DNA of 8,533 bases. It comes from a virus (lineage: Duplodnaviria; Heunggongvirae; Uroviricota; Caudoviricetes). The stretch lies in the IMG/VR virus record IMGVR_UViG_2706794698_000013. One strand, written 5' to 3'. The position numbers were made by a program, and so were the translations under genes. Below are positions 1 to 8,533 of the stretch, one piece after another (within the stretch, counting starts at the first letter, position 1; each line of letters opens with the position of its first letter). Below the pieces are notes generated by a model. It was not told the origin of the DNA, searched no databases, and saw only the letters and a program-made list of their open reading frames with translations.

Positions 1-2
1 CA

Positions 3-680
3 ATGGGGAATGAGCGAATAACATTTTCTCTGGCGACCTATGCGTCCGATGTCGGAATTGCCTCTGTCGTCAGAGGAGCGCAGGTTGGCTCATGGAAAAT
101 GCAGATCCCTAACGACGGCGATATTACAGCGACCGTAACCTTTGCCGGACTGGACTGGGAATCAAAGGCCGATGATACGAATTTTATCAAAGGCGAACCT
201 GTGGATAGTGCAGGAAAGCTACGTTATTCGTTTAAGGAGGTTTCAGCAGTAAGCCTGAATGGTGTTGCCGGAGGTAACGGTTTTTGTATCGACAGTTTTG
301 ATATTCAGTTCGATAACAAACTCCAGACACAGCGTTGTATCGGGACTGGCTCGCCTTATGCAGGAGCAAATATTCCGACTACTTTTACACCGTCCGGTAC
401 GGTGACGCTTTCATGGTCTAAAGCCGCGTGGGAAATCTGGAGTAAAACACTGACTGGAGAAACAGTTCCGTTCAGCTTCACGCTTTCGAATGGAGAGGGG
501 GCATACACTTTCAGTTTCCCGAAGGTTCAGGTGTCAGGTGAATGGCCTGATGGGGGTAATAGCGACATTATCCAGGTTCAATTGAGCATTACCGCAGCAG
601 ATGAAGCACCTACGATAACCAGAAAAAAAAATTCCCCGGCTGCCGTGATCGCAAAAGCCAGTGCTGAGGCGATTAGTTGA
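3..680 (+). CDS. putative major tail (tube) protein, gpV-equivalent by position; 5' completeness unverified because the ATG sits at the window edge
   Basis: 225-codon ORF ending TGA 678-680, immediately upstream of the G/G-T chaperone pair and tape measure gene (lambda order V-G-T-H). Gly/Ser/Thr-rich beta-type composition. I do not recognise the sequence itself; the call rests on synteny. Confidence 0.5.
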   Translation: MGNERITFSLATYASDVGIASVVRGAQVGSWKMQIPNDGDITATVTFAGLDWESKADDTNFIKGEPVDSAGKLRYSFKEVSAVSLNGVAGGNGFCIDSFDIQFDNKLQTQRCIGTGSPYAGANIPTTFTPSGTVTLSWSKAAWEIWSKTLTGETVPFSFTLSNGEGAYTFSFPKVQVSGEWPDGGNSDIIQVQLSITAADEAPTITRKKNSPAAVIAKASAEAIS

Positions 681-728
681 TTTTCCGTTATTCCTCCTGT
701 GGTACTGCCCTACAGGGGGACGCATTGA

Positions 729-1190
729 ATGAGGTTATGGATGTTTATTCTTAATCAGAAAATTATCATTGGTGGAGAACGCTGGTTTACGCCAATGAAG
801 GACTTAAAACCTGTAGACGGGTTAAAACTGTTGGTGGCAAGCAGCGATAACGATCAGTATCGCTCCCGTAATGCATTAATCCGTCGCCACATTGAGAAAA
901 TGGATGCCAGTTTGCACGTCGGAACGAAGGAGTTTGATATTTCAAAGGTTTCCGAGGTGGATTCTGTTGATGATTTACTCATTGATAATGCCGCTCGTTA
1001 TCTGCTGAAAGACTGGAAAGGGGTTGGTGAACTGGTTAATGGTGTTGAGGTTGCACTGGAATATACGGCAGAACGAGGGATCGCGCTGCTTAAGCAGAAT
1101 CCAGAGTTGTACTGGCAGATCCTTGCAGAAGCAGCCAGCATCGCCCAGGGTAAAGAGCAGCAGAAGCAGGATACGATAAAAAAGCCATAG
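729..1190 (+). CDS. tail assembly chaperone, gpG-like (zero-frame product)
   Basis: 153-codon ORF; GGGGGA at 715-720 lies 8 nt upstream of ATG 729 (alternative starts ATG 741 and 795). Ends TAG 1188-1190 just after a slippery heptamer. Sits between the major tail protein and the tape measure gene. Confidence 0.7.
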   Translation: MRLWMFILNQKIIIGGERWFTPMKDLKPVDGLKLLVASSDNDQYRSRNALIRRHIEKMDASLHVGTKEFDISKVSEVDSVDDLLIDNAARYLLKDWKGVGELVNGVEVALEYTAERGIALLKQNPELYWQILAEAASIAQGKEQQKQDTIKKP

Positions 1191-1498
1191 CTGCCCAGCG
1201 GTGGTTATCGGAGTTCGGGGGAGAAAGGGGGGAAAAGGCAAGATGGAAGCGAGAAAAACTCAGGTTGCCACCGATACCGGAACCAGAAATAGACCCGGTG
1301 CTTAAGGAGTTGTTGTACGCCTATTCGGTAATATCCCGTGCCCGACGTTATGCTGGAATGGCTGGGGTGCCTTTGCCTTTATCTCTGACAGAGATAAATG
1401 AATATTTAGCCACTCATCCGGTATTGATTGAGCGCGATGAATTTGAAGCAGTGATCTTTGCACTGGATGACCAGTATTTTCAGGAGCAGTGTGTGTAG
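729..1498 (+). CDS. gpG-T-like fusion chaperone made by -1 programmed ribosomal frameshift at 1178-1184 (about 256 aa: 152 zero-frame codons plus 104 codons in the -1 frame)
   Basis: The -1 frame is open from 1184 to TAG 1496-1498, with no stop among the codons I translated from 1184 to 1267. The shift site lies 2 codons before the G stop. This is the conserved G/GT architecture of long-tailed phages. Confidence 0.6.
1178..1184 (+). other. -1 slippery heptanucleotide A_AAA_AAG (X_XXY_YYZ in the G zero frame)
   Basis: Zero-frame codons are ata(1176) aaa(1179) aag(1182) cca(1185) tag(1188), so the heptamer 1178-1184 reads A AAA AAG in frame. Slipping back one nt enters the open frame encoding ...PPIPEPEIDPVLKELL.... 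Confidence 0.6.
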
Positions 1499-1618
1499 TT
1501 GTTAATTACGTACACTCTGTTACAGAGATGTGATGGTGTCTTTAATTAAATCGATGATGCTCCTGGAGAAAAGCATTGCGTGGCCTCGTAATCGCTATAT
1601 CTACTATTATGTCGCCTG

Positions 1619-1643
1619 AAACCCACTTCGCGGTGGGTTTTTT
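1619..1643 (+). terminator. rho-independent terminator-like hairpin between the chaperone genes and the tape measure gene
   Basis: aaaCCCAC ttcgcg GTGGGttt: 5-bp GC core extendable by A:T pairs, followed by a T-run (1638-1643). Lies 20 nt upstream of the AGGAG RBS (1650-1654) of the tape measure gene. Confidence 0.4.
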
Positions 1644-1663
1644 GTTGTCAGGAGTTTTAATAA

Positions 1664-4600
1664 ATGGCAGAGCAAACCTCGCGTCTCGCAATAATTATTG
1701 ATAGCACTGGAGCGAAAAATAATGCTGACAATCTGACCTCCTCATTAGTCAAAATGACGCAGGCTGGGGAAACTGCTGCAAATAGCGCAGGGAAAGTGAC
1801 TAAGGCAACAGAAGATGAGAAGAACGCGCTCGCAAAATTAAAAGCAGCTATTGATCCAGTTGGTGCCGCAATTGATACTGTCGGTCGACGCTATTCTGAA
1901 TTAAAGAAATTTTTCGATAAAGGGCTTATTGATAAAGAAGAATATGAATTTCTTGTCCGTAAACTTAATGAAACCACAGAGGAATTGAGCGGGGTTGCGC
2001 AAGCGCAGAGAGAAGCCGAGAAGGCCGGAAAACTTGCTGCCGCCCAGCAGGAAGCGCAGGCTCAGGCCTTTCAAAGAATGCTGGACAAGATCGACCCTCT
2101 GGCTGCGGCGCTAAGAAATCTTGAACAACAGCATGATGAACTTAATGCTGCGTTTGCATCCGGGAAAATAAATGGTTCTCAGTTTGAGAATTATAGCCGA
2201 AAAATACAGGAAACACGGCGAGAGCTTACCGGAGAGGCTCAGGCAGAGCGAGAAGCAGCAAAAGCGCATGATGAACAGGTTGTTGCTTTGCAACGTCTGA
2301 TTGCTCAACTTGATCCTGTCGGAACTGCTTTTAATCGTCTGGTAGAACAACAGAAACAGCTCAATGAAGCAAAAGCTAAGGGGATGCTTTCTCCTGAAAT
2401 GTATGAGGAGCTTTCTGGAAAACTTCGTGCTATGCGGAGTGAGCTTGAGGTTACTCAATCACAATTAAGCAAAACCGGAATGTCGGCAAAACAAACGGCT
2501 TTTGCTATGCGCATGTTGCCTGTACAAATGACGGATATTGTTGTTGGGTTGTCCACTGGTCAGTCGCCATTTATGGTGTTAATGCAGCAGGGCGGCCAGC
2601 TAAAAGATATGTTCGGTGGGATTGGCCCGGCGATCAAAGGTGTAGGTTCTTATGTGCTGGGATTAATTAATCCTTTTACCCTGGCCGCAGCAGCCGTTGG
2701 GGTCTTAGGACTGGCTTACTATAAAGGCTCTCAGGAGCAGGACGAATTTAATAAATCTCTTATTCTTACCGGAAATCAGTTGGGGACAACCAGCGGGCAA
2801 TTGGGCGATATAGCTCAACGTGCCGGGAATGCGGCTGATTCGACAACTGGTGCTGCGGCGGCAGTATTAAATCAGCTTGTGCGTTCGGGAAAGGTAGCGA
2901 GCAGTTCGCTGGAGCAAGTGACGACAGCGATAGTAAAAACGAGCGAAGTAACAGGAATATCAACCGAACAACTGGTTAATGACTTCAATGAAATTGCAAA
3001 GGATCCTGTCAGTGCCATATCAAAACTTAATGATCAGTACCATTTTCTGACACTTGCGACTTATAACCAGATTAAGGCGCTACAGGATGAAGGGAACCAG
3101 CAGGAGGCCGCCCGCATTGCGACAGAAGAATACTCATCCTCAATGATCCAGCGCACCAACCAGNNNNNNNNNNNNNNNNNNNNNNNNNNNNNNNNNNNNN
3201 NNNNNNNNNNNNNNNNNNNNNNNNNNNNNNNNNNNNNNNNNNNNNNNNNNNNNNNNNNNNNNNNNNNNNNNNNNNNNNNNNNNNNNNNNNNNNNNNNNNN
3301 NNNNNNNNNNNNNNNNNNNNNNNNNNNNNNNNNNNNNNNNNNNNNNNNNNNNNNNNNNNNNNNNNNNNNNNNNNNNNNNNNNNNNNNNNNNNNNNNNNNN
3401 NNNNNNNNNNNNNNNATTGCTCAGGACGTACTAAATTCATCAATAAACGATTACAACAAGCGACAACAGGAAGGAATTGAACTCAGACAGAGAGCAGATG
3501 CCTTTTCAAAACAATATCAGACCCGGGAGCAGCAGAGAGCTAGTGAACTTGCAAAACTGGAAAAGCTAAAGAATCAGTATTCAAAGGAAGAATATAATAA
3601 TCTTATCGCTCAAATAAATGAGCGTTATAAAGATCCAAAGCAACCAAAGGCGAAAGGTTATTCTGATGATGCAGCCCAACGAATGATTGATCATCTGAAT
3701 CAACAGAATGCGTTACTAAGTTCACAAGCTGAGTTGACCGTTAAATTAAGTTCCTCTGAACAGGAACTGGTTAAGTGGCGTCAGCGGATTGCCGACCTAG
3801 AGTCACGACCATCATCGAAATTAACCCAGGATCAGAAATCGCTTCTCTTACACCGGGAAGAAATAACCACGTTGATGGAGAAAAATGTTGCGATTGAAAA
3901 AAATAACAGGCTAATCAAGGAATCCGCCGAAATAACAGCATGGCGTGATTCATTGCAGGCTTCGATTGATAATCGTCAGCAGGGGTATGATATTCAGATT
4001 GCTGGTTATGGGGTTGGCGATAAAAATCAGCAACGCCAGCAGGAATTACTGCGGATTGAACATGGATATAACAATCAGCGTCTGCAACTTGAACGTGACT
4101 ATGCAGATAAATCCCGTGGAATGTCAGATCATGTTTTTCAAGAGAAAATGCAGGCTCTGAATGATGCTCTGGAACGGGAAAAAGAAATTGTCAGACAGAA
4201 AAACGAGCAGCTCGATATTCAGGCAGGAGACTGGGTTAGTGGTGCCTCCCAGGGATTCAATAACTGGCTGGATGACACTAAGGATATCAGTGAGCAGATA
4301 AAATCAACCACGACTCAGATGTTTGATGGGATGACCGATGCGCTGGGTGATTTTGTCACGACAGGCAAGGCAAATTTTCGTTCTTTCGCTACTTCCGTGA
4401 TTTCGGATCTTAGTCGAATAGCATTAAAGGCTTCAATTACTGGGATTTTCGACAGCATTAGTAACAGTTCTTCTGGGGGGATTTTAGGAACTATCGGGAG
4501 TGCTATTAGTAAATTTATTCCGAATGCAAAGGGCGGTGTTTATGAGTCTCCGTCATTGAGCACGTATTCGAACGGTATTTATGATTCCCCGCAATTTTTT

Positions 4601-4888
4601 GCTTTTGCAAAAGGGGCTGGTGTTTTTGGTGAGGCTGGACCGGAAGCCATTATGCCATTAACACGAACTTCCGATGGTTCTCTTGGTGTCAGAGCTATTA
4701 ATAGTAAAAGTGGTAATGGAGGCGGAGATATTACCTATGCCCCTGTATACCAAATCACTATTCAAAATGACGGCCAGAATGGAGAGATTGGCCCTCAGGC
4801 AATAAAAGCACTTATGGGGATGGTTGATCAGCGGGTGCAGGGCAATCTGTTAAATATGCGACGTGATGGGGGAATGTTAAGTGGCTAA
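1664..4888 (+). CDS. H: tail tape measure protein (lambda gpH family), 1074 codons of which 84 are hidden in an N-run
   Basis: AGGAG at 1650-1654 then ATG 1664. Central segment [39 protein letters not shown] and C-terminal [16 protein letters not shown]...[10 protein letters not shown] align with lambda gpH as I recall it. Coiled-coil N-terminus, hydrophobic Gly-rich stretch; stop TAA 4886-4888. Confidence 0.9.
1844..2473 (+). repeat. three tandem degenerate repeats of about 70-80 aa inside the tape measure N-terminal coiled-coil region
   Basis: Repeat units begin at residues about 63 ([22 protein letters not shown]...[15 protein letters not shown]), 143 ([22 protein letters not shown]...[15 protein letters not shown]) and 216 ([22 protein letters not shown]...ELEVTQSQL). 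Shared [IL]DP[VL]...EL..G...REA.KA pattern. Confidence 0.55.
3164..3415. other. run of 252 N (masked or unsequenced), inside the tape measure gene
   Basis: Literal n characters. Begins exactly at codon 501 of the ORF and spans 84 codons, so the frame continues on the far side. Confidence 0.99.
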
Positions 4889-4922
4889 TACGGAAGAATT
4901 TCACTGGTTACCAGAGGATGGA

Positions 4923-5219
4923 ATGAAAACAGAAAATAAACCATCGATAAAAACTGTAAGATTTGGTGATGGTTATGAGCAACGAAGTCCAAATGGACTT
5001 AATCATTCTCTGCGCGTTTTCACCTGTGATTTCAAAGTTGAGGCGAATGAACGTGATTCATTTGAAAAATTTTTAGCCCGGCATGAAGGCTATAAATCTT
5101 TTTTTTGGCGCCCGCCGGGTATTAACAGAAAAATCAGAGTGGTGTGTCGAACGTGGTCAGCGACAGAACATATCACCTATACCGATTTTTCGTGTCAGTT
5201 TGACGAAGTGGTGATCTGA
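4923..5219 (+). CDS. M: minor tail protein M (lambda gpM homolog)
   Basis: ATG 4923 preceded by AGAGGA (4913-4918). N-terminus MKTENKPSIKTVRFGDGYEQ resembles lambda gpM (..VRKVRFGDGYSQ..). The ORF track starts at in-frame GTG 4881, which overlaps the H stop and lacks an RBS. Stop TGA 5217-5219 overlaps the L start (TGATG). Confidence 0.8.
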   Translation: MKTENKPSIKTVRFGDGYEQRSPNGLNHSLRVFTCDFKVEANERDSFEKFLARHEGYKSFFWRPPGINRKIRVVCRTWSATEHITYTDFSCQFDEVVI

Positions 5220-5917
5220 TGCAGGACATACAACAGGAAACGCTGAATGAATGCATTCGTGCGGAGCAGTCGGCCAGCGTGGTGCTCTGGGAAATCGACC
5301 TGACCGAGGTAGGCGGGGATCGCTACTTTTTCTGCAATGAGCAGAACGAGAAAGGAGAGTCTGTCACCTGGCAGAGTCGGCAGTATCAGGCCTATCCCAT
5401 TCAGGGGAGTGGATTTGAGATGAACGGCAAAGGTGCCAGTGCAAGGCCAACGCTGAAAGTCTCTAATCTGCACGGCATGGTCACCGGGATGGCGGAAGAC
5501 CTGCAGAGTCTGGTCGGCGGAACGGTGGTCAGGCGTAAGGTTTACGCCCGTTTTCTGGATGCGGTGAACTTCGTCAACGGAAACAGTGACGCCGATCCGG
5601 AGCAGGAGGTGATCAGCCGCTGGCGTATTGAGCAGTGCAGCGAACTGAGCGCGGTCAGTGCCTCCTTTGTACTGTCCACGCCGACGGAAACGGACGGCGC
5701 TGTTTTTCCGGGGCGCATCATGCTTGCTAATACCTGCACCTGGACCTATCGCGGTGATGAGTGCGGTTATCACGGTCCGGCTGTCGCGGATGAATATGAC
5801 CAGCCAACGTCCGATATCACGAAGGATAAATGCAGCAAATGCCTGAGCGGTTGTAAGTTCCGCAATAACGTCGGCAACTTTGGCGGCTTCCTTTCCATTA
5901 ACAAACTTTCGCAGTAA
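5219..5917 (+). CDS. L: minor tail protein L (lambda gpL, near-identical)
   Basis: 232 aa; MQDIQQETLNECIRAEQSASVVLWEIDLTEVGG... matches lambda gpL almost residue for residue by recollection. C-terminal Cys cluster CTWTYRGDECGYHG...CSKCLSGC. Start coupled to the M stop. Confidence 0.93.
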   Translation: MQDIQQETLNECIRAEQSASVVLWEIDLTEVGGDRYFFCNEQNEKGESVTWQSRQYQAYPIQGSGFEMNGKGASARPTLKVSNLHGMVTGMAEDLQSLVGGTVVRRKVYARFLDAVNFVNGNSDADPEQEVISRWRIEQCSELSAVSASFVLSTPTETDGAVFPGRIMLANTCTWTYRGDECGYHGPAVADEYDQPTSDITKDKCSKCLSGCKFRNNVGNFGGFLSINKLSQ

Positions 5918-5922
5918 ATCCC

Positions 5923-6061
5923 ATGACACAGACAGAATCAGCGATTCTGGCGCACGCCCGGCGATGTGCGCCAGCGGAGTCGTGCGGCTTCGTGGTGAGA
6001 ACACCGGAGGGGGAAAGATATTTTCCCTGCGTGAATATTTCCGGTGAGCCGGAGGAGTATT
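5923..6061 (+). CDS. K: 5' fragment of tail protein K (first 46 codons), cut off by an N-run
   Basis: MTQTESAILAHARRCAPAESCGFVVRTPEGERYFPCVNISGEPEEY, starting 5 nt after the L stop. It is a non-identical duplicate of 6492-6630 (7 nt differences, 2 amino-acid changes). Confidence 0.6.
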
Positions 6062-6314
6062 NNNNNNNNNNNNNNNNNNNNNNNNNNNNNNNNNNNNNNN
6101 NNNNNNNNNNNNNNNNNNNNNNNNNNNNNNNNNNNNNNNNNNNNNNNNNNNNNNNNNNNNNNNNNNNNNNNNNNNNNNNNNNNNNNNNNNNNNNNNNNNN
6201 NNNNNNNNNNNNNNNNNNNNNNNNNNNNNNNNNNNNNNNNNNNNNNNNNNNNNNNNNNNNNNNNNNNNNNNNNNNNNNNNNNNNNNNNNNNNNNNNNNNN
6301 NNNNNNNNNNNNNN
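6062..6314. other. run of 253 N
   Basis: Literal n characters separating the K 5' fragment from a second copy of the L 3' end. Confidence 0.99.
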
Positions 6315-6486
6315 CTATCGCGGCGATGAGTGCGGTTATCACGGTCCGGCGGTCGCGGATGAATATGACCAGCCAACGTCCGACATCACGAAGGATAAAT
6401 GCAGCAAATGCCTGAGTGGCTGTAAGTTTCGCAATAACGTCGGCAACTTTGGCGGCTTCCTTTCCATTAACAAACTTTCGCAGTAA
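6315..6486 (+). other. L: second copy of the 3' end of L (last 56 codons plus stop)
   Basis: Encodes YRGDECGYHGPAVADEYDQPTSDITKDKCSKCLSGCKFRNNVGNFGGFLSINKLSQ*, identical in protein to 5749-5917 but with 6 synonymous nt differences. Confidence 0.6.
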
Positions 6487-6491
6487 ATCCC

Positions 6492-7235
6492 ATGACAGAG
6501 ACAGAATCAGCGATTCTGGCGCACGCCCGGCGATGTGCTCCAGCGGAGTCGTGCGGCTTCGTGGTAAGAACGCCGGAGGGGGAAAGATATTTCCCCTGCG
6601 TGAATATCTCCGGTGAGCCGGAGGCGTATTTCCGTATGTCGCCGGAAGACTGGCTGCAGGCAGAGATGCAGGGTGAGATTGTGGCACTGGTCCACAGCCA
6701 CCCCGGTGGTCTGCCCTGGCTGAGTGAGGCCGACCGGCGGCTGCAGGTGCAGAGTGATTTGCCGTGGTGGCTGGTCTGCCGGGGGGCGATTCACAAGTTC
6801 CGCTGTGTGCCACATCTTACCGGGCGGCGCTTTGAGCACGGGGTGACGGACTGTTACACGCTGTTCCGGGATGCTTACCATCTGGCGGGGATTGAGATGC
6901 CGGATTTTCATCGTGAGGATGACTGGTGGCGTCACGGTCAGAATCTCTATCTTGACAATATGGAGGCGACTGGTTTTTACCGTGTCGCACTGACAGAGGC
7001 GCAGCCGGGCGATGTGCTGCTGTGCTGTTTTGGTTCATCGGTGCCGAATCATGCCGCCATTTACTGTGGTGATGGCGAGCTGCTGCACCATATTCCTGAA
7101 CAACTGAGCAAACGAGAGAGGTATACCGACAAATGGCAGCGACGCACACACTCCCTCTGGCGTCACCGGGCATGGCACGCATCTGCCTTTACGGGGATTT
7201 ACAACGATTTGGCCGCCGCATCGACCTTCGTGTGA
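6492..7235 (+). CDS. K: tail assembly protein K (JAMM/MPN-like N-terminal domain plus NlpC/P60-like C-terminal domain), full length, 247 aa
   Basis: Near-identical to lambda gpK by recollection. JAMM motif H68-S-H70-x7-S78-x2-D81 in EIVALVHSHPGGLPWLSEAD; candidate NlpC/P60 catalytic Cys in GVTDCYTLF and His in VPNHAAIY. Stop TGA 7233-7235. Confidence 0.93.
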   Translation: MTETESAILAHARRCAPAESCGFVVRTPEGERYFPCVNISGEPEAYFRMSPEDWLQAEMQGEIVALVHSHPGGLPWLSEADRRLQVQSDLPWWLVCRGAIHKFRCVPHLTGRRFEHGVTDCYTLFRDAYHLAGIEMPDFHREDDWWRHGQNLYLDNMEATGFYRVALTEAQPGDVLLCCFGSSVPNHAAIYCGDGELLHHIPEQLSKRERYTDKWQRRTHSLWRHRAWHASAFTGIYNDLAAASTFV

Positions 7236-7261
7236 AAACGGGGGCTGAAGCCATCCGGGCG
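7133..7261 (+). CDS. I: 5' fragment of tail protein I (first 43 codons), overlapping the K 3' end and running into an N-run
   Basis: MAATHTLPLASPGMARICLYGDLQRFGRRIDLRVKTGAEAIRA, identical in protein to the start of the full I copy at 7760. Confidence 0.55.
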
Positions 7262-7511
7262 NNNNNNNNNNNNNNNNNNNNNNNNNNNNNNNNNNNNNNN
7301 NNNNNNNNNNNNNNNNNNNNNNNNNNNNNNNNNNNNNNNNNNNNNNNNNNNNNNNNNNNNNNNNNNNNNNNNNNNNNNNNNNNNNNNNNNNNNNNNNNNN
7401 NNNNNNNNNNNNNNNNNNNNNNNNNNNNNNNNNNNNNNNNNNNNNNNNNNNNNNNNNNNNNNNNNNNNNNNNNNNNNNNNNNNNNNNNNNNNNNNNNNNN
7501 NNNNNNNNNNN
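7262..7511. other. run of 250 N
   Basis: Literal n characters between the I 5' fragment and a second copy of the K 3' portion. Confidence 0.99.
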
Positions 7512-7862
7512 GCGGGAATTGAGATGCCAGATTTTCATCGTGAGGACGACTGGTGGCGTAATGGTCAGAATCTCTATCTGGATAATCTGGAGGCTACAGG
7601 GCTGTATCAGGTGCCGTTGTCAACGGCGCAGCCGGGCGATGTGCTGCTGTGCTGTTTTGGTTCATCGGTGCCGAATCATGCCGCCATTTACTGTGGTGAT
7701 GGCGAGCTGCTGCACCATATTCCTGAACAACTGAGCAAACGAGAGAGGTATACCGACAAATGGCAGCGACGCACACACTCCCTCTGGCGTCACCGGGCAT
7801 GGCACGCATCTGCCTTTACGGGGATTTGCAGCGATTTGGCCGCCGCATCGACCTTCGTGTGA
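7512..7862 (+). other. K: second, divergent copy of the 3' portion of K (116 codons plus stop)
   Basis: AGIEMPDFHREDDWWRNGQNLYLDNLEATGLYQVPLSTAQPGDVLLCCFGSS...ICSDLAAASTFV*. Corresponds to 6885-7235 at an offset of 627 nt, with 9 amino-acid differences clustered in one patch plus the last residues. Confidence 0.6.
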
Positions 7863-8407
7863 AAACGGGGGCCGAAGCCATCCGGGCACTGGCCACACAG
7901 CTCCCGGCATTTCGTCAGAAACTGAGCGACGGCTGGTATCAGGTGCGCATTGCCGGGCGTGATGCAGGCGAAAATGAATTATCTGCCCGTCTTAATGAAC
8001 CGCTGGCAAATGGTGCCGTGATCCACATCGTTCCGCGTCTGGCGGGTGCCAAAAGTGGCGGTGTGTTTCAGGCGGTGCTGGGTGCGGCGCTGATTGCGGT
8101 GGCATGGTGGAACCCTGTGGGCTGGCTGGGGGCCGCGGCTGTATCGGGTATGTATGCAGCAGGGGCCAGTATGATCCTGGGTGGTGTGGCGCAGATGCTG
8201 GCACCGAAAGCCAGGACGCCCACGGCAGCCAGTACAGATAACGGCAAACAGAACACGTATTTCTCGTCACTGGATAACATGGTTGCCCAGGGTAATGTTC
8301 TGCCTGTTCTGTACGGGGAAATGCGCGTGGGGTCACGTGTGGTTTCTCAGGAGATCAGCACGGCAGACGAAGGGGATGGTGGTCAGGTTGTGGTGATTGG
8401 TCGCTGA
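7760..8407 (+). CDS. I: tail assembly protein I (lambda gpI, near-identical), 215 aa
   Basis: MAATHTLPLASPGMARICLYGDLQRFGRRIDLRVKTGAEAIRALATQLPAFRQKLSDGWYQVRIAGRD... and C-terminal NGKQNTYFSSLDNMVAQGNVLPVLYGEMRVGSRVVSQEISTADEGDGGQVVVIGR match lambda gpI by recollection. Overlaps the K 3' end by about 100 nt in a different frame. Stop TGA 8405-8407. Confidence 0.9.
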   Translation: MAATHTLPLASPGMARICLYGDLQRFGRRIDLRVKTGAEAIRALATQLPAFRQKLSDGWYQVRIAGRDAGENELSARLNEPLANGAVIHIVPRLAGAKSGGVFQAVLGAALIAVAWWNPVGWLGAAAVSGMYAAGASMILGGVAQMLAPKARTPTAASTDNGKQNTYFSSLDNMVAQGNVLPVLYGEMRVGSRVVSQEISTADEGDGGQVVVIGR

Positions 8408-8425
8408 TGCAAAATGTTTTATGAG

Positions 8426-8446
8426 AAACCGCCTGCGGGCGGTTTT
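8426..8446 (+). terminator. terminator-like hairpin between I and J
   Basis: AAACCGCC tgcg GGCGGTTT: perfect 8-bp stem with 4-nt loop, followed by T-rich ttttgtcgttt. Lies 19 nt after the I stop and about 20 nt before the J start. Confidence 0.35.
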
Positions 8447-8467
8447 GTCGTTTATGGAGCGTGAGGA

Positions 8468-8533
8468 ATGGGTAAAGGCAGCAGTAAGGGGCATACCCCG
8501 CGCGAAGCGAAGGACAACCTGAAGTCCACGCAG
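8468..8533 (+). CDS. J: N-terminus of tail tip/central fibre protein J (3' end truncated by the window)
   Basis: GAGGAA at 8463-8467 then ATG 8468. The 22 codons MGKGSSKGHTPREAKDNLKSTQ match the lambda gpJ N-terminus as I recall it. Confidence 0.85.
   Translation, partial: MGKGSSKGHTPREAKDNLKSTQ

Follow-up and report, generated by a model that had tools for sequence, protein, structure and literature searches.

Draft assemblies contain a known class of artefact in which overlapping contigs are duplicated and mimic segmental duplications (Kelley and Salzberg, 2010, PMC2864568), and false gene gains are known from the same source (PMC9516828). Gap closers such as GapFiller (PMC3446322) and IMAGE (PMC2884544), run in high-throughput bacterial pipelines (PMC5320598), grow contig edges with mate-recruited reads: a majority vote decides how an edge is extended, and closure requires that the extensions merge and agree with the estimated gap size (PMC3446322), a procedure that fails at repetitive flanks (PMC2884544, PMC5320598). 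The locus described here resembles duplicated overlapping contigs in several respects: firstly, adjacent contig ends align at a few percent divergence, and collapsing them restores the true layout; secondly, both versions appear to have received mate links to the same neighbourhood; thirdly, extra gene calls result, here a 112-amino-acid K fragment and a second K. It differs from the published examples in two ways. Those involve the haplotypes of diploids, whereas here a haploid bacterium would have supplied the copies, as paralogous prophage modules or as a consensus of several such modules; and the intruding contig overlaps both of its neighbours. The third point of reference is the M-L-K-I-J region of phage lambda, with which the prophage shares gene order, overlapping or abutting reading frames and Pfam families.

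The window, meaning the whole 8,533-nt stretch that was analysed, is the entire public WGS record CWUY01000173.1 (assembly GCA_001260435.1), Ns included, and a literature search on CWUY01 and GCA_001260435 found no publication. The record is a draft scaffold of four contigs (S1 to S4). We considered whether its N-runs mask real sequence and rejected this, since no stored gene call runs past an N-run and the record as fetched matches the window letter for letter. Its features are as follows, with reference coordinates from locus L001 of strain NCTC9082.

1-3163, plus strand: contig S1, 99.94% identical to L001:6001-9163; Pfam families were assigned on the record's gene calls
Genes on S1: 3' part of the tail tube gene, 3-680; YdaY-like gene, 729-1190; small ORF in the -1 frame, to 1498; tape measure gene, from 1664
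3164-3415: N-run 1, 252 N, inside the tape measure gene; flanking sequences do not overlap
3416-6061, plus strand: contig S2, 2646 nt, 100% identical to L001:9425-12070 and also to loci L060, L063 and L064
Genes on S2: 3' part of the tape measure gene, to 4888; M, 4881-5219; L, 5219-5917; first 139 nt of K, 5923-6061
5746-6061, plus strand: copy A1 (L end and K start), resident-prophage allele, 100% to L001:11755-12070 and 95.9% to B1
6062-6314: N-run 2, 253 N, close in size to the true S2-to-S4 distance of 254 bp
6315-7261, plus strand: contig S3, 947 nt, 94.5% identical to the resident locus
Genes on S3: last 172 nt of L, to 6486; complete K, 6492-7235, 247 amino acids; first 30 nt of I, 7232-7261
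6315-6630, plus strand: copy B1 (L end and K start), paralogous allele, running from the first base after N-run 2
6885-7261, plus strand: copy A2 (K end and I start), paralogous allele, 92.8% to B2 and 92.3% to L001, ending before N-run 3
7262-7511: N-run 3, 250 N
7512-8533, plus strand: contig S4, 99.5% identical to L001:12325-13346 and 99.7% to L064
Genes on S4: last 351 nt of resident K, to 7862; I, 7859-8407; first 66 nt of J, from 8468
7512-7888, plus strand: copy B2 (K end and I start), resident-prophage allele, 99.2% to L001:12325-12701
8425-8446: terminator-like hairpin on S4

Aligning the contigs to complete E. coli genomes revealed that S1, S2 and S4 are collinear with one prophage at 99.5–100% identity. 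The tape measure gene is represented on S1 by its first 1500 nt, and the tail-tip families follow in the order PF05939 (M), PF05100 (L), PF14464 with PF00877 (K) and PF06805 (I), all above Pfam cut-offs; of these, S2 supports PF05939 and PF05100, and S4 supports PF00877 and PF06805. J, which begins MGKGSSKG, is annotated next after I in the reference. In the resident prophage the capsid gene is P22-like and the tail tube belongs to Phage_tube_2; YdaY and a 1077-amino-acid tape measure protein come next, ahead of a lambda-like M-L-K-I-J region. Its capsid genes and upstream tail half (tube, YdaY, tape measure) are unlike those of lambda; it is a mosaic with a lambda-type tip module.

Between the end of S2 and the start of S4, 254 bp are missing relative to all 11 reference loci, namely NCTC9082 and 10 further long contigs chosen as encoding the same L protein; these 10 have the M-L-K-I-J order in single copy. 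Joining the 139 nt of K on S2, the 254 reference nt and the 351 nt on S4 gives a 744-nt ORF whose protein is identical to NCTC9082 K.

The earlier note, made from the sequence alone, had held that the L-end/K-start and K-end/I-start segments each occur twice as non-identical copies separated by N-runs, and both pairs were found by ungapped comparison. Pair 1 (5746-6061 against 6315-6630) spans 316 nt with 13 mismatches (95.9% identity), in keeping with the divergence of about 4% given in the note; pair 2 (6885-7261 against 7512-7888) spans 377 nt with 27 mismatches (92.8%), so that the same figure falls short of its 7.2%. The mismatches of pair 2 are unevenly spread: 23 are crowded into 6890-6997, and 203 identical bases follow. 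A repeat search of the whole window returned these two direct-repeat families only, at spacings of 569 and 627. Chance cannot give repeats of such length and identity within 8.5 kb. The gene landmarks on which the note relied were also borne out: L stops at 5915-5917 and 6484-6486, the second copy being only the last 172 nt of the gene; K has an ATG at 5923 and 6492 and stops at 7233-7235 and 7860-7862, the second stop preceded by 351 nt of K; and I has a GTG at 7232 and 7859.

We asked whether sequencing errors could have produced the differences between copies and set this aside: of the 13 changes in pair 1, 11 are synonymous and fall at third positions, and natural alleles contain the variants. 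The high synonymous fraction indicates that the copies of pair 1 are real alleles rather than read errors. Both pairs straddle an N-run, with their copies on neighbouring contigs of one scaffold, and every copy meets an N-run boundary exactly (A1 ending at 6061, B1 starting at 6315, A2 ending at 7261, B2 starting at 7512). The record holds no junction sequence between copies, as both would-be junctions fall inside N-runs.

Among the four contigs, only S3 is foreign to the resident prophage. Its overlap is 316 nt with S2 and 377 nt with S4, and it differs from NCTC9082 at 53 positions along its full length, 10 of them in the central 254 nt. At 94.5% identity, with differences throughout, it agrees with the note's view that the copies are paralogues and not trivially overlapping contig ends. 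Judged by its sequence, S3 is a paralogous K region that overlaps both neighbouring contigs, and its K retains the JAB and NlpC/P60 domains (Pfam). Among 5426 complete E. coli genomes its best full-length match reached 98.1%, while its two halves had best matches of 99.3% and 98.7%; no other contig in the gene index encoded its K protein. In an allele panel of 55 IMG/VR loci matching an S3-specific 50-mer, none of which contains N-runs, nearly every base of S3 was present in some natural allele, and the best donor shifted along the sequence.

The absence of a close match might be taken to mark S3 as a chimeric consensus. We compared its rarity with that of two control alleles, from NCTC9082 and one IMG/VR isolate, and these were found at ≥99% identity in only 15 and 7 records, respectively. 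As control alleles are matched so closely in only 7–15 records, such rarity is normal for this mosaic region; the argument for a chimera is weak, and we do not rely on it. S3 may instead be a genuine second prophage allele, a candidate origin for which the 98.1% match is the best in a complete genome.

The sizes of the three gaps tell them apart. The flanks of N-run 1 map to L001 9163 and 9425, a true gap of 261 bp that the 252 Ns miss by 9, as in an ordinary sized gap. A repeat was considered as the reason for this gap and rejected, since the 261 missing bases are confined to this prophage type within the allele panel. At gaps 2 and 3, the layout as written exceeds the reference by 569 and 627 nt, and the two N counts (253 and 250) both fit the single true 254-bp hole between S2 and S4.

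These data indicate that the repeats, although real in the deposited sequence, are almost certainly a draft-assembly artefact produced by multi-copy lambdoid tail modules. The reading that follows has a probability of roughly 90%, and under it a single L, a single I and one intact 744-nt K most likely make up the true locus. The note had likewise favoured a scaffolding mis-join or collapse of near-identical lambdoid prophages, which the collinearity of S1, S2 and S4 upholds. The source would be a short-read scaffold of an E. coli-type genome with more than one lambdoid tail-tip module, in which S1, S2 and S4 derive from one prophage and 254 bp of its K were left unassembled between S2 and S4. 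S3 would then represent the same region, derived from a paralogous prophage copy or assembled locally from reads of several copies, and this 947-nt piece would have been placed into the 254-bp hole. Because S3 differs by 4–7% from its neighbours, the software could not have merged the ends and would have left sized N-runs. A minimum of one additional K-region allele would lie elsewhere in the genome. Once the redundancy is collapsed, the layout matches that of finished genomes and the K reading frame is whole again.

As for the software step that placed S3, a plain de Bruijn graph would collapse the identical 203-nt stretch present in both S3 and S4, and we therefore infer a post-assembly extension or gap-closing step. 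Gap closers offer a likeness, by analogy only, in their majority voting at ambiguous bases and their failure at repetitive flanks. That the gap estimates are positive, at about 250, despite the overlap could be explained if an island had been inserted into one gap, or if extension had followed gap estimation.

The finding is a matter of data quality only, and the biology is ordinary: several lambdoid prophages per E. coli genome share near-identical mosaic tail-tip modules. The record nonetheless inflates the gene count (a second K, the 112-amino-acid K fragment, a truncated tape measure gene), and read literally it implies either that the tail operon is broken or that a tandem duplication took place. 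Draft scaffolds of this kind would mislead counts of prophage tail genes, pseudogene calls and inference of recombination.

A different assignment of the pieces, which we consider improbable, would reverse their roles: S3 would be the true K region of the prophage, and the tails of S2 (5746-6061) and S4 (7512-7888) would have been over-extended from the reads of another prophage. The layout would remain an artefact and the locus would have L, K and I once each; only its K allele would differ. Consistent with such an exchange, prophages of ETEC6, strain 3359 and ET210 that have the same tape measure gene match the left 570 nt of S3 at 99.3% in their L-end/K-start, and NCTC10444 has A1 at 100% in a second prophage, one of lambda type. 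However, S2 matches to its last base at 100%, and S4 at 99.5–99.7%, in the same four complete genomes, so the S1, S2 and S4 haplotype exists in nature, whereas the combination of S2, S3 and S4 is not seen above 98.1%. The fit of both N-run sizes to the S2-to-S4 distance speaks against reversed roles as well.

Mixed strains or contamination, with S3 as the K-region allele of a second strain's prophage drawn into the scaffold, would fit the S3-like alleles in the same prophage type of other strains and differences that are clean, mostly synonymous and allelic. Yet paralogous prophages are already usual in E. coli, whose complete genomes have this stretch in a median of 3 copies and a maximum of 15; a second strain explains nothing that they do not, and nothing in the window requires one. 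We regard this reading as very unlikely, and presumably S3 belongs to the genome sequenced, not to a contaminant. Material for assembly errors of this type is plentiful: in NCTC10444, two prophages of different type have 6.65 kb of the tail-tip module in common at 99.0% identity.

There remains the reading that the note itself had ranked second, real partial tandem duplications, here a paralogous L'-K-I' patch of ~1.2–1.45 kb inside K that amounts to two adjacent duplications with their junctions under the Ns. It can be made self-consistent: if the 254 nt that K lacks lie under N-run 2 and 250 nt of I under N-run 3, both junctions fall at K 393/394, and with the Ns at face length a single paralogous insertion of ~1197 nt at K nucleotide 393/394 results. 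If true, it would be a trace of template switching or illegitimate recombination between the paralogous tail modules of co-resident prophages, and the tail-tip operon would be inactivated. The duplicated layout was absent from the best 25 matches, the 10 long contigs and a sample of 60 complete genomes spread evenly over 4454 records matching an L-to-J query; in the sampled 60, places matching the full query measured at most about 2.5 kb, mostly 2.07–2.14 kb, against 3.3 kb for the layout as written. With no support in any complete genome examined, with copies 4–7% apart and hence no recent tandem duplication, with illegitimate recombination needed at the junctions, K split, and those junctions coinciding exactly with the unsequenced parts, real duplication is barely credible.

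The same pattern recurs elsewhere. ON470602.1, an independent, unrelated draft phage record, has a 180-nt overlap at 95.6% identity across a gap in the same module and also holds an inserted paralogous piece; the gaps there are only 10 N, which further argues against real duplication. ON470602.1 most likely shows the same artefact as the window.

The window is identical, Ns included, to CWUY01000173.1 (8533 bp; NCBI assembly GCA_001260435.1) and so represents an entire draft WGS scaffold, whose N-runs are sized assembly gaps between four contigs, S1–S4.

Contigs, gaps and gene landmarks of the scaffold
1-3163: S1, piece between N-runs
3164-3415: N-run 1, 252 N
3416-6061: S2, piece between N-runs
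6062-6314: N-run 2, 253 N
6315-7261: S3, piece between N-runs, 947 nt
7262-7511: N-run 3, 250 N
7512-8533: S4, piece between N-runs
5219-5917: L, its last 172 nt present again at 6315-6486
5923 and 6492: K starts
7235 and 7862: K ends
7232 and 7859: I starts

Coordinates and Pfam families (M, L, K with JAB plus NlpC/P60, and I confirmed) agree with the landmarks for L, K and I in the earlier note, which had also reported that the L-end/K-start and K-end/I-start regions occur twice, as non-identical copies across N-runs. Ungapped comparison recovered both pairs: 5746-6061 matches 6315-6630 (316 nt, 13 mismatches, 95.9%), and 6885-7261 matches 7512-7888 (377 nt, 27 mismatches, 92.8%). The divergence of about 4% claimed for the copies thus holds for the first pair and is too low for the second, which differs by 7.2%. 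A repeat finder detected no further direct-repeat families in the window. Because 11 of the 13 differences in the first pair are synonymous, they mark true alleles shaped by selection rather than read errors. Most mismatches of the second pair (23) cluster in 6890-6997; the next 203 bases (6998-7200 and 7625-7827) are the same in both copies. Within this stretch S3 and S4 have in common three variants absent from E. coli NCTC9082 (at 7073/7700, 7109/7736 and 7124/7751), which could reflect gene conversion between co-resident copies or consensus bleeding across during assembly.

Comparison with the complete genome of NCTC9082 revealed which contig is foreign: its locus is collinear with S1 (99.94%), S2 (100%) and S4 (99.5%), but matches S3 at only 94.5%, with 53 differences along the whole length of S3, 10 of them in its middle 254 nt, between the two overlaps. 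Likewise, four comparison loci (L062, L063, L064 and L067) match S1, S2 and S4 at 99.1–100% and S3 at 94.5–95.1%. In NCTC9082 the end of S2 lies 254 bp from the start of S4, a distance repeated in 10/10 further alignments, and all ten further long contigs, chosen as encoding an identical L protein, carry L-K-I in single copy (calls for M, the tape measure or J are absent in a few). Joining 139 nt of S2, 254 reference nt and 351 nt of S4 restores K as a 744-nt open reading frame, the product of which is identical to the NCTC9082 K protein. Judged from these alignments, S3 is a 947-nt paralogous version of the L-end/K/I-start region placed in a 254-bp hole, with overlaps of 316 nt with S2 and 377 nt with S4.

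We conclude that the repeats are almost certainly a false duplication at scaffold level and not biology, that a single L, a single intact K and a single I most likely make up the true locus, and that the genome has one or more other K-region alleles elsewhere. This bears out the reading favored in the earlier note, of near-identical lambdoid prophages mis-joined or collapsed, and refines it by assigning S1, S2 and S4 to one collinear prophage and singling out S3 as the paralogous piece. Roles could in principle be reversed, with S3 as the resident K allele and the tails of S2 and S4 as intruders; the same prophage type in other strains does match the left 570 nt of S3 at 99.3%, but several finished genomes have the S1+S2+S4 haplotype whole, and the N-runs are of the size expected if S2 and S4 are directly adjacent, making this variant unlikely. 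A real insertion at K 393/394 of paralogous DNA (~1.2 kb) would make geometric sense but has nothing else in its favor, and we regard it as highly improbable. As a foreign piece, S3 could represent a genuine allele of a second prophage or, in part, a consensus built from several copies. The closest match to it reaches 98.1%, and no other contig in the gene index encodes its protein, although rarity argues weakly for a consensus since control alleles are rare too.

The written layout was absent from all finished genomes examined (the top 25 whole-window matches and a sample of 60). The top 25 matches span ~7.34 kb as compared to 8.53 kb, the single exception having IS5; in the 60 records, spaced evenly down a ranking of 4454, places matching the whole L-to-J query span 2.07–2.14 kb (2.53 kb with an extra gene) as compared to 3.3 kb as written. 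Where complete E. coli genomes have this stretch, the median copy number is three and the maximum fifteen. NCTC10444, which matches S1 at 99.97% and S2 at 100%, has two prophages with 6.65 kb in common at 99.0%, from L to beyond lom (L063 6049-12699 and L068 6522-13172). Their K and I proteins are identical, and their capsid and tail-shaft genes are unlike (YdaY type versus lambda-like with G, T, U and V), a sequence pattern that points to recent exchange of the tail-tip module inside one genome. Short reads are unable to separate such near-identical copies.

The same class of artefact affects the same genes in an unrelated draft, ON470602.1 (6637-8902), deposited as a 'partial genome' of Escherichia phage vB_EcoS-885R8. 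This record has four N-runs (10, 34, 10 and 10 N), a 180-nt overlap (95.6%) across a 10-N gap, and a paralogous H-end/M/L piece inserted between N-runs, which the annotation counts as additional H, M and L genes.

How did the artefact arise? From homologous geometry, read pairs would be expected to place S2-S3 and S3-S4 at distances of -316 and -377, as compared to +253 and +250 in the record, both near the single true S2-to-S4 gap of 254. An identical 203-nt stretch would occur once in a plain de Bruijn graph. Its presence twice, together with N sizes that fit the S2-S4 gap, suggests a step after primary assembly. A scaffolder or gap closer may have placed in one ~250-nt gap an island assembled from reads recruited nearby; alternatively, edges may have been extended further once the gap size was already fixed. 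Among published tools, GapFiller grows contig edges one base at a time by majority vote, closing a gap only when the edges meet and the result agrees with the estimated size (PMC3446322). IMAGE works by local re-assembly of reads recruited at contig ends; according to its authors, a main cause of misassemblies or of gaps that cannot be closed is repetitive flanks (PMC2884544). A widely used bacterial pipeline chains SSPACE and GapFiller, with a warning that both are greedy and may produce false joins (PMC5320598). Kelley and Salzberg (PMC2864568) called the general class 'duplicated overlapping contigs'; here paralogous prophages take the place of haplotypes.

Stored gene calls for CWUY01000173.1 break off at the N-runs, and an exact-protein look-up of the complete-K protein returned this contig alone in the gene index. 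The gaps also create a 401-aa tape measure fragment (3683-4888) and a 112-aa NlpC/P60 K fragment (7524-7862), false additions to any gene count.

N-run 1, inside the tape measure gene, is of a different kind: S1 and S2 are 261 bp apart in NCTC9082, so its 252 Ns are a good estimate with no duplication. All reference loci have 261 bp here, and the open reading frame across the Ns (1074 aa versus 1077 aa) is in frame by accident. In the comparison panel the missing 261 bp were not found outside this prophage type; a repeat therefore does not explain the assembly failure.

Upstream, the YdaY-like gene ends ...ATA AAA AAG CCA TAG and contains A_AAA_AAG, a classical -1 slippery heptamer, at 1178-1184. 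The -1 frame beyond it is open for 104 codons (stop 1496-1498) and spans a separately annotated 77-aa ORF; public annotation of 729-1498 has two entries, YdaY and a hypothetical protein. This candidate site and its 104-aa extension are kept in 10 of 11 related loci. Lying between the genes for the tail tube and the tape measure, the site has the same position as the G/GT chaperone frameshift of lambda. Finally, two strong terminator-like hairpins with T tails lie on the + strand, at 1618-1641, shortly before the tape measure gene begins (1664), and at 8425-8446, after the stop of I (8407) and before the start of J (8468).
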